From the NCBI RefSeq assembly GCF_003334355.1, contig NZ_QOWP01000003.1: 64,000 nucleotides of DNA, one strand, 5' to 3'. The stretch is from Escherichia coli (GTDB lineage: Bacteria > Pseudomonadota > Gammaproteobacteria > Enterobacterales > Enterobacteriaceae). The notes beneath the pieces are model-generated. The model made no database searches and was not told the origin of the DNA. It saw only the letters and a program-made list of their open reading frames with translations. Below are positions 17,670 through 46,342 of the stretch, in pieces (the stretch's first letter is position 1; every line of letters begins with the position of its first letter). The translations under genes were made by a program, and so were the position numbers.

Positions 17670-18647
17670 TTATGCCCGGTCAACGCTAAAGGCGATGACT
17701 TCAGCCAGTGTCTCCGCGCCCAGCGCCAACATCACCAGACGATCAACACCTAATGCCACGCCGGAACAGTCAGGCATACCGACTTTCAAGGCTTCAATCA
17801 GATTCTGGTCAATGGGGTGCTGCGGCAAACCGCGCGCCGCGCGCTTACGGTTATCTTGTTCAAAGCGTTGTTGCTGCTCACGGGCATCCGTCAATTCATG
17901 GAAACCATTCGCCAGCTCAATACCTTTATAATAAACCTCAAAGCGTTCAGCGACCCGATGATCTTCGGTACTGATTTGCGCCAGTGATGCCTGGCTGGCT
18001 GGAAAGTGGTACACAAAGGTCGGTTTTTCTTTGCCAATATTTGGCTCTACGCCAAAGGTAAACAGCAATTGTAGCAGCGTGTCGCGGTCTTCTTCGGTAT
18101 CAGCAACATTGCTCAAATCCAGTTTCGCTGCGACTTCCCGCAGTTGCGTTTTGTCGGCAGAGAGCGGGTCAATTTCCAGATAACGCAAGAAAGCTTGTTG
18201 ATAAGAAAGGCTTTCTGCTGCCGGGCAGTCCAGCACCTGTTGTAAGAGATCGTCCACCTCGTTCATCAACCGGTACATATCATAGTGCGGTCGATACCAC
18301 TCCAGCATAGTGAACTCAGGGTTGTGATAACGCCCCATCTCTTCATTACGGAAGCTGCGGCACAGCTGGAATACCGGCCCACAACCGGCAACCAGCAGGC
18401 GTTTCATATGGTATTCCGGGCTGGTCATTAACCAGAGATTCATCCCCTGCGAATGCCCGGGGCCAACGAAACGTGTCTCAAACGGGACCAAATGAATATC
18501 GGTTACCGTCGCCTGGCTCATACAAGGCGTCTCCACCTCCAGCACTCCACGATCGGCAAAGAAACGACGGATCTCCGCCATAATCGCCGCGCGTTTTAAT
18601 AAGTTAGGAATGGATGCGCTCGGCTGCCAGGATGCCGTTTCGCTCAT
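17670..18647 (-). CDS. epmA: EF-P lysine34 beta-lysyl ligase EpmA (PoxA/GenX), 325 aa
   Basis: ORF track 340 aa; start trimmed to [30 protein letters not shown]; class II aaRS catalytic core motifs. Confidence 0.92.
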
Positions 18648-18819
18648 AGTTAAATCTCCAGTTTTTGACAAGGGCACGAAGTCTACTCGCAACGCGACGG
18701 CGAGACAAATTTTACGCAGGAATCAAACAGCGGTGGGCAGTGACTAAAAAAAGCACGATCTGATGGTTTAGTAATTAAATTAATCATCTTCAGTGATAAT
18801 TTAGCCCTCTTGCGCACTA

Positions 18820-40900: not shown

Positions 40901-41264
40901 GTAACTCCGGGTTGATTTATGCTCGGAAATATTTGTTGTTGAGTTTTTGTATGTTCCTGTTGGTATAATATGTTGCGGCAATTTATTTGCCGCATAATTT
41001 TTATTACATAAATTTAACCAGAGAATGTCACGCAATCCATTGTAAACATTAAATGTTTATCTTTTCATGATATCAACTTGCGATCCTGATGTGTTAATAA
41101 AAAACCTCAAGTTCTCACTTACAGAAACTTTTGTGTTATTTCACCTAATCTTTAGGATTAATCCTTTTTTCGTGAGTAATCTTATCGCCAGTTTGGTCTG
41201 GTCAGGAAATAGTTATACATCATGACCCGGACTCCAAATTCAAAAATGAAATTAGGAGAAGAGC
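40901..41264 (+). promoter_or_regulatory. cadBA promoter region (Pcad), AT-rich; expected to hold the CadC and H-NS binding sites
   Basis: 364-bp AT-rich intergenic region upstream of cadB; exact site positions not resolved by eye. Confidence 0.5.
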
Positions 41265-42599
41265 ATGAGTTCTGCCAAGAAGATCGGGCTATTTGCCTGT
41301 ACCGGTGTTGTTGCCGGTAATATGATGGGGAGCGGTATTGCATTATTACCTGCGAACCTAGCAAGTATCGGTGGTATTGCTATCTGGGGTTGGATTATCT
41401 CTATTATTGGTGCAATGTCGCTGGCGTATGTATATGCCCGACTGGCAACAAAAAACCCGCAACAAGGTGGCCCAATTGCTTATGCCGGAGAAATTTCCCC
41501 TGCATTTGGTTTTCAGACAGGTGTTCTTTATTACCATGCTAACTGGATTGGTAACCTGGCGATTGGTATTACCGCTGTATCTTATCTTTCCACCTTCTTC
41601 CCAGTATTAAATGATCCTGTTCCGGCGGGTATCGCCTGTATTGCTATCGTCTGGGTATTTACCTTTGTAAATATGCTCGGCGGTACTTGGGTAAGCCGTT
41701 TAACCACTATTGGTCTGGTGCTGGTTCTTATTCCTGTGGTGATGACTGCTATTGTTGGCTGGCATTGGTTTGATGCGGCAACTTATGCAGCTAACTGGAA
41801 TACTGCGGATACCACTGATGGTCATGCGATCATTAAAAGTATTCTGCTCTGCCTGTGGGCCTTCGTGGGTGTTGAATCCGCAGCTGTAAGTACTGGTATG
41901 GTTAAAAACCCGAAACGTACCGTTCCGCTGGCAACCATGCTGGGTACTGGTTTAGCAGGTATTGTTTACATCGCTGCGACTCAGGTGCTTTCCGGTATGT
42001 ATCCGTCTTCTGTAATGGCGGCTTCCGGTGCTCCGTTTGCAATCAGTGCTTCAACTATCCTCGGTAACTGGGCTGCGCCGCTGGTTTCTGCATTCACCGC
42101 CTTTGCGTGCCTGACTTCTCTGGGCTCCTGGATGATGTTGGTAGGCCAGGCAGGTGTACGTGCCGCTAACGACGGTAACTTCCCGAAAGTTTATGGTGAA
42201 GTCGACAGCAACGGTATTCCGAAAAAAGGTCTGCTGCTGGCTGCAGTGAAAATGACTGCCCTGATGATCCTTATCACTCTGATGAACTCTGCCGGTGGTA
42301 AAGCATCTGACCTGTTCGGTGAACTGACCGGTATCGCAGTACTGCTGACTATGCTGCCGTATTTCTACTCTTGCGTTGACCTGATTCGTTTTGAAGGCGT
42401 TAACATCCGCAACTTTGTCAGCCTGATCTGCTCTGTACTGGGTTGCGTGTTCTGCTTCATCGCGCTGATGGGCGCAAGCTCCTTCGAGCTGGCAGGTACC
42501 TTCATCGTCAGCCTGATTATCCTGATGTTCTACGCTCGCAAAATGCACGAGCGCCAGAGCCACTCAATGGATAACCACACCGCGTCTAACGCACATTAA
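41265..42599 (+). CDS. cadB: Lysine:cadaverine antiporter CadB
   Basis: ORF track 444 aa MSSAKKIGLFACTGVVAGNMMGSGIALLPANLASIGG... Confidence 0.95.
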   Translation: MSSAKKIGLFACTGVVAGNMMGSGIALLPANLASIGGIAIWGWIISIIGAMSLAYVYARLATKNPQQGGPIAYAGEISPAFGFQTGVLYYHANWIGNLAIGITAVSYLSTFFPVLNDPVPAGIACIAIVWVFTFVNMLGGTWVSRLTTIGLVLVLIPVVMTAIVGWHWFDAATYAANWNTADTTDGHAIIKSILLCLWAFVGVESAAVSTGMVKNPKRTVPLATMLGTGLAGIVYIAATQVLSGMYPSSVMAASGAPFAISASTILGNWAAPLVSAFTAFACLTSLGSWMMLVGQAGVRAANDGNFPKVYGEVDSNGIPKKGLLLAAVKMTALMILITLMNSAGGKASDLFGELTGIAVLLTMLPYFYSCVDLIRFEGVNIRNFVSLICSVLGCVFCFIALMGASSFELAGTFIVSLIILMFYARKMHERQSHSMDNHTASNAH

Positions 42600-42616
42600 T
42601 TAAAAGTATTTTCCGA

Positions 42617-42662
42617 GGCTCCTCCTTTCATTTTGTCCCATGTGTTGGGAGGGGCCTTTTTT
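42617..42662 (+). other. Intercistronic hairpin with U tract between cadB and cadA
   Basis: GGCUCCUCC...GGAGGGGCC stem (one G-U pair) followed by UUUUUU, ending 17 nt before the cadA start codon. Confidence 0.4.
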
Positions 42663-42678
42663 ACCTGGAGATATGACT

Positions 42679-44826
42679 ATGAACGTTATTGCAATATTGA
42701 ATCACATGGGGGTTTATTTTAAAGAAGAACCCATCCGTGAACTTCATCGCGCGCTTGAACGTCTGAACTTCCAGATTGTTTACCCGAACGACCGTGACGA
42801 CTTATTAAAACTGATCGAAAACAATGCGCGTCTGTGCGGCGTTATTTTTGACTGGGATAAATATAATCTCGAGCTGTGCGAAGAAATTAGCAAAATGAAC
42901 GAGAACCTGCCGTTGTACGCGTTCGCTAATACGTATTCCACTCTCGATGTAAGCCTGAATGACCTGCGTTTACAGATTAGCTTCTTTGAATATGCGCTGG
43001 GTGCTGCTGAAGATATTGCTAATAAGATCAAGCAGACCACTGACGAATATATCAACACTATTCTGCCTCCGCTGACTAAAGCACTGTTTAAATATGTTCG
43101 TGAAGGTAAATATACTTTCTGTACTCCTGGTCACATGGGCGGTACTGCATTCCAGAAAAGCCCGGTAGGTAGCCTGTTCTATGATTTCTTTGGTCCGAAT
43201 ACCATGAAATCTGATATTTCCATTTCAGTATCTGAACTGGGTTCTCTGCTGGATCACAGTGGTCCACACAAAGAAGCAGAACAGTATATCGCTCGCGTCT
43301 TTAACGCAGACCGCAGCTACATGGTGACCAACGGTACTTCCACTGCGAACAAAATTGTTGGTATGTACTCTGCTCCAGCAGGCAGCACCATTCTGATTGA
43401 CCGTAACTGCCACAAATCGCTGACCCACCTGATGATGATGAGCGATGTTACGCCAATCTATTTCCGCCCGACCCGTAACGCTTACGGTATTCTTGGTGGT
43501 ATCCCACAGAGTGAATTCCAGCACGCTACCATTGCTAAGCGCGTGAAAGAAACACCAAACGCAACCTGGCCGGTACATGCTGTAATTACCAACTCTACCT
43601 ATGATGGTCTGCTGTACAACACCGACTTCATCAAGAAAACACTGGATGTGAAATCCATCCACTTTGACTCCGCGTGGGTGCCTTACACCAACTTCTCACC
43701 GATTTACGAAGGTAAATGCGGTATGAGCGGTGGCCGTGTAGAAGGGAAAGTGATTTACGAAACCCAGTCCACTCACAAACTGCTGGCGGCGTTCTCTCAG
43801 GCTTCCATGATCCACGTTAAAGGTGACGTAAACGAAGAAACCTTTAACGAAGCCTACATGATGCACACCACCACTTCTCCGCACTACGGTATCGTGGCGT
43901 CCACTGAAACCGCTGCGGCGATGATGAAAGGCAATGCAGGTAAGCGTCTGATCAACGGTTCCATTGAACGTGCGATCAAATTCCGTAAAGAGATCAAACG
44001 TCTGAGAACGGAATCTGATGGCTGGTTCTTTGATGTATGGCAGCCGGATCATATCGATACGACTGAATGCTGGCCGCTGCGTTCTGACAGCACCTGGCAC
44101 GGCTTCAAAAACATCGATAACGAGCACATGTATCTTGACCCGATCAAAGTCACCCTGCTGACTCCGGGGATGGAAAAAGACGGCACCATGAGCGACTTTG
44201 GTATTCCGGCCAGCATCGTGGCGAAATACCTCGACGAACATGGCATCGTTGTTGAGAAAACCGGTCCGTATAACCTGCTGTTCCTGTTCAGCATCGGTAT
44301 CGATAAGACCAAAGCACTGAGCCTGCTGCGTGCTCTGACTGACTTTAAACGTGCGTTCGACCTGAACCTGCGTGTGAAAAACATGCTGCCGTCTCTGTAT
44401 CGTGAAGATCCTGAATTCTATGAAAACATGCGTATTCAGGAACTGGCTCAGAATATCCACAAACTGATTGTTCACCACAATCTGCCGGATCTGATGTATC
44501 GCGCATTTGAAGTGCTGCCGACGATGGTAATGACTCCGTATGCTGCATTCCAGAAAGAGCTGCACGGTATGACCGAAGAAGTTTACCTCGACGAAATGGT
44601 AGGTCGTATTAACGCCAATATGATCCTTCCGTACCCGCCGGGAGTTCCTCTGGTAATGCCGGGTGAAATGATCACCGAAGAAAGCCGTCCGGTTCTGGAG
44701 TTCCTGCAGATGCTGTGTGAAATCGGCGCTCACTATCCGGGCTTTGAAACCGATATTCACGGTGCATACCGTCAGGCTGATGGCCGCTATACCGTTAAGG
44801 TATTGAAAGAAGAAAGCAAAAAATAA
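42679..44826 (+). CDS. cadA: Inducible lysine decarboxylase CadA, 715 aa
   Basis: ORF track 42640-44826 trimmed to MNVIAILNHMGVYFKEEPIRELHRALERLNF; PLP-lysine motif region STHKLL. Confidence 0.97.
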   Translation: MNVIAILNHMGVYFKEEPIRELHRALERLNFQIVYPNDRDDLLKLIENNARLCGVIFDWDKYNLELCEEISKMNENLPLYAFANTYSTLDVSLNDLRLQISFFEYALGAAEDIANKIKQTTDEYINTILPPLTKALFKYVREGKYTFCTPGHMGGTAFQKSPVGSLFYDFFGPNTMKSDISISVSELGSLLDHSGPHKEAEQYIARVFNADRSYMVTNGTSTANKIVGMYSAPAGSTILIDRNCHKSLTHLMMMSDVTPIYFRPTRNAYGILGGIPQSEFQHATIAKRVKETPNATWPVHAVITNSTYDGLLYNTDFIKKTLDVKSIHFDSAWVPYTNFSPIYEGKCGMSGGRVEGKVIYETQSTHKLLAAFSQASMIHVKGDVNEETFNEAYMMHTTTSPHYGIVASTETAAAMMKGNAGKRLINGSIERAIKFRKEIKRLRTESDGWFFDVWQPDHIDTTECWPLRSDSTWHGFKNIDNEHMYLDPIKVTLLTPGMEKDGTMSDFGIPASIVAKYLDEHGIVVEKTGPYNLLFLFSIGIDKTKALSLLRALTDFKRAFDLNLRVKNMLPSLYREDPEFYENMRIQELAQNIHKLIVHHNLPDLMYRAFEVLPTMVMTPYAAFQKELHGMTEEVYLDEMVGRINANMILPYPPGVPLVMPGEMITEESRPVLEFLQMLCEIGAHYPGFETDIHGAYRQADGRYTVKVLKEESKK

Positions 44827-44837
44827 TTAGCTCGTAC

Positions 44838-44868
44838 AAGGGAAGTGGCTTGCCACTTCCCTTTTTTG
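44838..44868 (+). terminator. cadBA operon intrinsic terminator
   Basis: AAGGGAAGTGG-cttg-CCACTTCCCTT hairpin followed by TTTTTG, 12 nt after cadA stop. Confidence 0.85.
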
Positions 44869-44884
44869 CTCATAAGGAGAACAC

Positions 44885-46342
44885 ATGAAAACACCCTCAC
44901 AGCCGCGCGCGATATACTATATCGTGGCGATCCAAATCTGGGAGTACTTCAGTTTTTACGGCATGCGTGCCTTACTCATTCTCTATCTCACCCATCAGCT
45001 TGGTTTTGATGATAACCATGCCATCAGCCTGTTCAGCGCATATGCTTCTCTGGTTTACGTTACCCCTATTCTCGGCGGCTGGCTTGCCGACCGCCTGCTC
45101 GGCAACCGCACTGCAGTGATTGCCGGCGCGCTGTTAATGACCCTTGGCCATGTGGTGCTGGGTATTGATACAAATTCAACCTTTAGCCTGTATCTGGCGC
45201 TGGCAATCATTATTTGTGGCTACGGTTTATTCAAATCAAACATCAGCTGTTTGCTTGGCGAGCTCTACGACGAGAACGATCATCGACGTGATGGCGGTTT
45301 TTCGCTGCTGTATGCTGCGGGCAATATCGGTTCTATCGCAGCCCCAATCGCCTGCGGCCTGGCTGCTCAGTGGTATGGATGGCATGTTGGCTTTGCCCTT
45401 GCGGGTGGCGGCATGTTTATCGGTTTGTTGATTTTCTTAAGCGGTCATCGTCATTTCCAGTCCACACGTAGTATGGATAAAAAAGCGCTCACTAGTGTCA
45501 AATTTGCCTTACCAGTATGGAGCTGGTTAGTGGTGATGCTCTGTTTAGCCCCAGTATTTTTTACTCTGCTGCTGGAGAACGACTGGTCCGGATATTTGCT
45601 GGCGATCGTTTGCCTCATTGCCGCACAAATCATTGCCCGCATGATGTTCAAATTCCCCGAACATCGCCGTGCTCTTTGGCAAATTGTATTGTTGATGTTT
45701 GTCGGGACATTGTTCTGGGTACTGGCACAACAGGGCGGCAGTACCATCAGCTTGTTTATCGATCGCTTTGTGAATCGTCAGGCATTCAATATTGAAGTAC
45801 CTACAGCACTATTCCAGTCGGTGAATGCAATTGCGGTGATGCTCGCTGGGGTTGTACTGGCCTGGCTGGCGTCGCCAGAAAGCCGCGGCAACTCAACATT
45901 GCGCGTCTGGCTGAAGTTTGCCTTTGGCTTACTGCTGATGGCTTGTGGCTTTATGTTGTTGGCATTTGATGCCCGACATGCAGCGGCTGACGGTCAAGCG
46001 TCAATGGGCGTGATGATATCCGGGCTGGCGCTAATGGGCTTTGCCGAACTCTTTATTGACCCGGTGGCGATTGCGCAAATCACGCGTCTGAAAATGTCTG
46101 GCGTATTAACCGGGATTTATATGCTGGCAACAGGCGCGGTCGCCAACTGGCTGGCAGGCGTCGTGGCACAGCAGACGACAGAGTCGCAAATTAGCGGTAT
46201 GGCAATTGCAGCTTACCAGCGATTCTTTTCTCAGATGGGAGAGTGGACGTTGGCTTGTGTCGCGATCATCGTCGTATTGGCCTTTGCTACCCGTTTTCTG
46301 TTTAGCACGCCGACGAATATGATACAGGAGAGCAACGATTAA
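44885..46342 (+). CDS. dtpC: Dipeptide/tripeptide:H+ symporter DtpC (YjdL), POT family
   Basis: ORF track 485 aa [36 protein letters not shown] (POT signature). Confidence 0.93.

Follow-up and report, generated by a model that had tools for sequence, protein, structure and literature searches.

The spacer examined here separates cadB from cadA in a stretch of Escherichia coli DNA of 64,000 nucleotides, referred to below as the window, whose coordinates are used throughout. Between the two genes lie a single-stranded flank, a long-looped stem, a short linker and the cadA Shine-Dalgarno (SD) sequence, and a canonical terminator follows cadA:

42597-42599, + strand: cadB stop codon TAA, on which direct reading, the ORF list and the K-12 annotation agree
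42600-42614, + strand: A/U-rich single-stranded 5' flank, UUAAAAGUAUUUUCC
42615-42626, + strand: 5' arm of the stem, GAGGCUCCUCCU, assigned from fold and covariation, with a 9-nt core at 42617-42625
42627-42646, + strand: loop of 20 nt (20-22 nt depending on the extent of the stem)
42647-42658, + strand: 3' arm of the stem, GGGAGGGGCCUU, purine-rich and SD-like, with its core at 42648-42656
42657-42662, + strand: U6 tract, present in the main E. coli allele only
42659-42666, + strand: linker from stem to SD, pyrimidine-rich and G-poor, 8-13 nt long in orthologues
42667-42670, + strand: cadA SD, GGAG, of which GGA is invariant in 60/60 aligned loci
42679-42681, + strand: cadA start codon ATG
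44838-44863: canonical intrinsic terminator after cadA, with an 11-bp stem, a 4-nt loop, U6 and a terminator discriminant score (d-score) of +30

The core of the stem joins GGCUCCUCC (that is, GGCTCCTCC, 42617-42625) to GGAGGGGCC (42648-42656) through nine pairs, seven G-C, one U-A and one U·G, and direct reading places 16 nt between U6 and the cadA ATG. Over 401 nt spanning the site, the window matches O157:H7 and K-12-type genomes with 100% identity; the K-12 intergenic region is identical to that of the window, and the K-12 annotation has the same 15 nt upstream of cadA. Two in-frame ATGs precede the true cadA start, one at 42640 within the hairpin loop and one at 42673. The mechanically called cadA ORF has 728 aa rather than 715 aa because it takes the ATG at 42640, which is not kept in other genera. 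The terminator after cadA ends only ~20 nt before the next ORF (44885-46342, same strand).

An earlier note, based on the sequence of the window, had placed a GC-rich 9-bp stem followed by U6 between cadB and cadA, and both direct reading and folding bear this out. With RNAfold, the stem grows to 12 bp (42615-26/42647-58), absorbing two of the U's and leaving U4. The hairpin is stable (-23.8 kcal/mol; z = -4.13 against dinucleotide shuffles, of which 1/200 folded equally well; z = -2.5 in a 91-nt context), and in a 260-nt context its probability is ~1 in 15/16 species. The antisense strand folds far more weakly (-15.5 kcal/mol, z = -1.8). Intrinsic terminators typically combine a GC-rich stem of ~5-14 bp, a short loop of 3-8 nt and an adjoining U-tract. 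The E. coli hairpin has such a stem (9-12 bp, 7 G-C pairs) and, in its main allele, a U-tract that no orthologue outside E. coli carries, but its loop spans 20-22 nt. Because this loop far exceeds 8 nt, a consensus terminator scan limited to loops of 3-8 nt did not report the cadB-cadA site. The + strand between cadB and cadA showed no predicted sigma-70-like promoter, and on this ground we rejected the idea that cadA has an internal sigma-70 promoter of its own within the spacer.

To follow the element across species, we collected 80 cadB loci from species-representative genomes, located cadA in them and extracted the spacers. The stem-loop was found in about 55 cadBA loci of Enterobacterales, Vibrio and Aeromonas, with its 3' end 8-13 nt upstream of the cadA SD in nearly all true Enterobacterales cadBA operons as well as in Vibrio and Aeromonas, so that the same structure occupies the same position in orthologous loci of gut as well as marine bacteria. 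The cadBA copies of Sutterella, Tatumella and Ignatzschineria have no such hairpin. A plain MAFFT alignment of 60 spacers gave 5 pairs and -1 kcal/mol with RNAalifold, because the 5' arms were out of register in it. A covariance model built from 22 Enterobacteriaceae with a hand-specified structure produced one match per cadBA locus and matched 54 loci at the cadB-cadA junction. In the resulting alignment, which was fitted to the model structure and therefore inflates pairing, 86.6% of cells were paired, compared with 46-57% for slid controls, and compensatory changes that keep the pairing, with both sides altered, occurred at 14/17 pairs. The observed covariation was reached by 0/500 shuffles, a test in which related sequences can outscore all shuffles without any structure.

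The copies from Vibrio and Aeromonas were not reached by the covariance model even at E up to 10, and were compared instead by individual folding and arm-swap chimeras. This exchange of arms, which is independent of alignment, gave a mean of -20.5 kcal/mol for native hairpins and -13.6 kcal/mol for cross-species 5'/3' chimeras, and the native hairpins ranked first or near first. The arms themselves (5'/3') read as follows:

Escherichia, Klebsiella and Salmonella: GCYCCUYC / GRGAGGGGC
Serratia proteamaculans and Yersinia ruckeri: GCCCCUUGC / GCAAGGGGC
Edwardsiella: GCCUCUCUC / GAGAGAGGC
Vibrio: GGCGCUC / GAGCGCC
Aeromonas: GCGCUCUUC / GGAGAGCGC

Those of Vibrio and Aeromonas are wholly unlike the enteric arms, and at close range E. 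albertii differs from E. coli by the exchange of one G-C for an A-U pair. Most Enterobacteriaceae also carry an inner 5-bp helix, GUCAC-N3-GUGAC, in the loop region, which has decayed in Escherichia. U·G pairs are frequent in the alignment, and this abundance, together with the weak antisense fold, identifies the sense RNA as the selected form; a palindrome or operator acting at the DNA level and an antisense RNA were both rejected on the same grounds. Since the hairpin is conserved with compensatory change, it is more than a chance fold: a stable sense-strand hairpin lies between cadB and cadA, under purifying selection for its structure.

Several further observations were made in the same set of loci. 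Paralogous cadBA-like operons (L049, L058, L059, L061 and L063; CadA identity 76-80%) hold GC-rich hairpins in the corresponding spacer that are unrelated to this one and lack U-tracts, which suggests a general need for a structured spacer. In the longer spacers of Vibrio (L074/L075/L079) and of Edwardsiella and Hafnia (L043/L047/L051/L057/L080), a second, unrelated hairpin stands just past the cadB stop, for example GCUGGCACUACGGUGCCAGC in Vibrio and GUAAUC-N5-GAUUAC in Edwardsiella, with A/U-rich sequence lying between it and the conserved stem-loop. In L016, L018, L028 (Kluyvera), L022, L026 and L027, 6 nt are duplicated in tandem where cadA starts (ATGACTATGACTATG or ATGTCTATG), which gives alternative in-frame starts two codons apart, with the SD weakened to GGAA. 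One record titled Chryseobacterium sp. 18061 (L032, CACSKA010000009.1) holds an enterobacterial cadBA locus that hardly differs from the one in Citrobacter sp. 18056 (L030), and the assembly is probably contaminated or mislabelled.

The U-tract behaves differently from the stem. U6 is confined to the main E. coli allele, and elsewhere the longest U run adjoining the stem has at most 4 residues. The sequences that adjoin the stem in other lineages are:

divergent E. coli SCPM-O-B-8794: UUCUUU
E. albertii: UUUCUUU
Klebsiella: UUUCUAC
Buttiauxella: UCCCCAU
Salmonella: CCACUUU
Vibrio: CUCAUUC

A single C-to-U transition from the common CCUUCUUUACC, found in the divergent E. coli and in relatives, accounts for U6. 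The 88-nt spacer is identical in 4845/5205 complete E. coli genomes (93%), and rare variants include a deletion of 2 nt, a 3'-arm change of G to A, and a T-to-C change at 42659 in the U-tract, which is the SCPM-O-B-8794 allele. In E. coli W5-6 and 98215 (L082/L083), the 3'-arm G-to-A change falls at the equivalent of 42654 and turns a C-G pair into a C·A mismatch. Such a pair could in principle exist as a protonated A+·C wobble when the pH is low, which is a curiosity given that acid induces the operon. The d'Aubenton-Carafa discriminant, with zero as the threshold, gave a d-score of +10.6 for E. coli, -6 to -51 for 19 other alleles and orthologues, +5.0 for the hairpin after cadC and, as listed above, +30 for the real cadA terminator. 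The terminator-like tail is thus a derived feature of E. coli and not part of the conserved element, and because the U-tract is absent in all orthologues, termination cannot explain why the hairpin is conserved. A single transition can make a conserved structural hairpin resemble a terminator, which calls for caution when terminators are annotated from one genome.

For the expression of the two genes we drew on RNA-seq and ribosome footprints from acid-shifted K-12 (Schumacher et al., 2023, Table S5), in which three values are given per gene and condition:

cadB, rpkm: pH 4.4, 1412 / 1795 / 1200; pH 5.8, 290 / 355 / 289
cadA, rpkm: pH 4.4, 2827 / 1973 / 2165; pH 5.8, 492 / 698 / 414

The cadA/cadB RNA ratio in these data is 1.58 at pH 4.4 and 1.72 at pH 5.8, although it could also stem from coverage bias, from faster decay of membrane-protein mRNA or from an unrecognised internal promoter. 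The ribosome footprint ratio is 4.5 at pH 4.4 and 2.5 at pH 5.8, and the translation efficiency at pH 4.4 is 0.94 for cadA and 0.34 for cadB (Schumacher et al., 2023). As cadA RNA exceeds cadB RNA under acid induction, no net RNA is lost across the hairpin, and an efficient terminator between the two genes is excluded; a weak one may be compatible with the ratios, provided that the cadA segment is more stable. Term-seq in LB or M63 has no curated 3' end assigned to cadB or cadA (Adams et al., 2021, supp. file 1), a negative of little weight since those cultures were not acid-induced and expressed the operon poorly. The same study lists bicyclomycin-sensitive Rho termination regions at K-12 4359249(-) and 4360512(-) (supp. 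file 2), which map to ~42047 of the window, inside cadB, and to ~40784, inside cadC near its end.

It is nevertheless conceivable that the E. coli allele acts as a leaky intrinsic terminator, with pausing on U6 and a fraction of transcripts ending at ~42660-42663; the result would be a cadB-only mRNA and a reduced dose of cadA, and this activity may coexist with a conserved role. Such an activity would draw on the GC-rich stem directly adjoining U6, on a d-score that lies above the threshold and near that of the post-cadC hairpin, on the prevalence of the U6 allele among complete E. coli genomes, and on a stem that begins 16 nt after the stop codon, where a terminating ribosome should not block folding. 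We consider it unlikely. The long loop departs from the usual range and led the consensus scan to reject the site, the orthologues without a U-tract leave the conservation unexplained, and neither the 1.6-1.7-fold higher level of induced cadA RNA nor the Term-seq data point to ends at this site. Lowering cadA would, moreover, oppose the 2.5-4.5-fold excess of CadA synthesis. The headline description of the element as terminator-like is therefore one that we do not retain, given a U-tract absent outside mainstream E. coli and a cadA RNA level above that of cadB.

We infer that the conserved job of the stem-loop is post-transcriptional and not termination, and we favour, with a probability of roughly 0.45, its being a segmental stability or processing determinant of the cadBA mRNA. 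Four observations speak for this reading: the downstream cadA RNA is more abundant than the upstream cadB RNA, the stem is preceded by a single-stranded A/U-rich stretch, the longer spacers of some species hold a second hairpin after cadB with A/U-rich sequence in between, and the paralogous operons have unrelated U-less hairpins in the same spacer. Two hairpins flanking an A/U-rich stretch are a layout that suits cleavage between protective hairpins. Once made, the stem-loop would fold on the sense transcript 8-13 nt upstream of the cadA ribosome-binding site (RBS), followed by the unstructured pyrimidine-rich linker. Endonucleolytic cleavage in the upstream A/U-rich stretch could then leave the stem-loop to protect the cadA segment; alternatively, the stem-loop might simply hinder RNase E as it scans 5' to 3', and 3' exonucleases as well. 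Either route would let the cadA segment persist or decay independently of the cadB segment, which is translated less well, and the outcome would be a soluble decarboxylase in several-fold excess over the membrane antiporter from one promoter. In E. coli proper, the C-to-U change would have created U6 and with it the look of a weak terminator, possibly adding weak termination as a recent extra.

RNase E prefers RN↓WUU, where the arrow marks the cut, and we take GU↓AUU in the 5' flank (42600-42614) to fit this motif, which makes 42607/42608 the single candidate cleavage site identified. A cut there would put 7 unpaired nt in front of the stem, which speaks against the model; 2-4 unpaired nt are reportedly the number usually compatible with protection by a 5' hairpin. 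V. cholerae is said to have monocistronic cadB and cadA transcripts besides cadBA. The earlier note had offered partial termination, processing or stability, and translational coupling as interpretations. Of these, the terminator label does not hold as a conserved feature, and the processing or stability option appears to fit the evidence best.

The main rival to a stability or processing determinant is a role in translation initiation, which we regard as improbable. Here the hairpin would lock away an SD-like purine tract together with its pyrimidine partner, insulate the cadA RBS from the coding sequence of cadB and block 70S scanning from the cadB stop, and the linker would serve as a single-stranded landing or S1-binding platform, so that cadA is initiated de novo and more efficiently than cadB. 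The higher translation efficiency of cadA is in line with this, as are the constant stem-to-SD distance of 8-13 nt and the composition of the linker, which over 32 distinct sequences is 41% U, 36% C, 18% A and 5% G, hence 77% pyrimidine; the U-runs of Hafnia, Enterobacillus and Edwardsiella stand 4-5 nt off the stem and cannot serve termination. When the hairpin is deleted in silico, the mean RBS opening energy rises by 0.9 kcal/mol, but this effect is small and varies between species, and disruption of the 5' arm even lowers the opening cost. An insulator would also not need sequence conservation at the level of GGGAGGGGC in Enterobacteriaceae.

Coupling by sequestration of the SD is a different proposition and, in our view, a highly improbable one. 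In both the MFE and the centroid fold of 42600-42690, UUUCC (42610-14) pairs with GGAGA (42667-71) as a 5-bp extension, which ribosomes finishing cadB would open, and an equivalent helix is predicted in several orthologues. This helix has just 5 bp including a G·U pair, closes an 8-nt internal loop and is not predicted in many other orthologues, and covariation is uninformative there because the SD is invariant. It starts 11 nt past the stop codon, which should place it at the edge of the terminating ribosome's reach, and 1:1 coupling cannot be reconciled with footprints that are 2.5-4.5 times higher on cadA. The coupling option of the earlier note is therefore left with a weak helix, while the stem-loop itself starts 16 nt past the cadB stop and therefore beyond the reach of a terminating ribosome.

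The stem-loop might also be a binding site or a sensor, through which cadA is tuned by a factor acting in trans (RNase III, ProQ, some other protein or an sRNA) or by a physical or chemical signal such as pH, cadaverine or another polyamine, a reading that we think very unlikely. The conservation of GGGAGGGGC and of the GUCAC-N3-GUGAC helix in Enterobacteriaceae exceeds what pairing requires, the stem with its asymmetric internal loop totals ~17 bp, and AzuR, an sRNA associated with ProQ/Hfq, has been proven to target the adjacent RBS. Conversely, the arms differ completely in Vibrio and Aeromonas and the inner helix is lost in E. coli, so any recognition would be of shape rather than sequence; the element also has no Rfam family, and the AzuR complementarity lies downstream of the stem. 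AzuR represses cadA by pairing near its RBS (Raina et al., 2022). Scanning with K-12 azuR (L081:3844-4002, minus strand), we found the best complementarity at ~42661-42686, where AzuR nt 92-116 match the cadA linker, SD and AUG at 20/25 positions, a predicted site that agrees with the published repression near the cadA RBS. Pairing of AzuR with the hairpin was rejected, as this best site lies downstream of the stem. It also seems a slim prospect that the lysine-decarboxylase operons of gammaproteobacteria carry, in this element, a cis-regulatory RNA motif that has gone undescribed and that a specific factor or signal reads. If it were true, the motif would set CadA output post-transcriptionally and add a feedback layer to the CadC circuit, with RNase III, ProQ, acid pH or cadaverine, acting on the RBS-adjacent bulged helix, as candidate readers.

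The cadBA operon is a textbook case of acid stress and a model for quantitative work on CadC signalling, in which it is treated as one transcript with one output. A conserved RNA structure between the genes and a 2.5-4.5-fold excess of CadA synthesis over CadB together imply that the enzyme:antiporter ratio is set by a post-transcriptional layer. In practical terms the impact is modest.

An Rfam 15 search of 41000-45200 at E up to 10 gave no match overlapping 42600-42680, and the searched literature contained no description of a cadB-cadA hairpin, terminator, processing site or monocistronic transcript. The stem-loop belongs to a known kind, that of intercistronic mRNA hairpins, and is undescribed in Rfam or the searched literature. 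The only other covariance-model match in the 64-kb window (18645-18705, minus strand, 18 bits, E = 0.13) is most likely due to chance.

Among known systems, intra-operon attenuator terminators resemble the element in having a GC-rich stem and then a U-run inside an operon, and the E. coli allele has a weakly positive discriminant; unlike them, however, cadBA has a loop of 20-22 nt, orthologues without a U-tract and no drop in RNA. The MS2 coat-replicase region and RNA thermometers share the pairing of an anti-SD-like pyrimidine tract with an SD-like purine tract near a start codon, whereas in cadBA the purines in the helix are distinct from the functional SD, which follows 8-13 nt further downstream and should, by prediction, be largely unpaired, and cadB and cadA are not expressed 1:1. 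The REP/BIME element of malE-malF and the stem-loops of Rhodobacter puf are reportedly stabiliser hairpins. They are alike in placing a non-terminating stem-loop between unequally expressed cistrons of one promoter, with unequal steady-state RNA, but there the upstream segment is the richer one, whereas in cadBA it is the downstream cadA segment that is richer and far more translated. The hairpin is also single-copy, unlike REP elements, and a REP/BIME repeat was rejected because it occurs at exactly one place per E. coli genome. The ompA 5' UTR is said to be stabilised by a 5'-terminal stem-loop, and hairpins have been described as obstacles to RNase E scanning (Richards and Belasco, 2019). 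The cadBA hairpin differs from ompA-type stabilisers in being internal to a polycistronic RNA, where it would require processing, and in its ~7 unpaired nt. It is like them, and like the obstacles to RNase E, in standing at a short fixed distance from an efficient RBS, in heading the more abundant segment and in following an A/U-rich strand.
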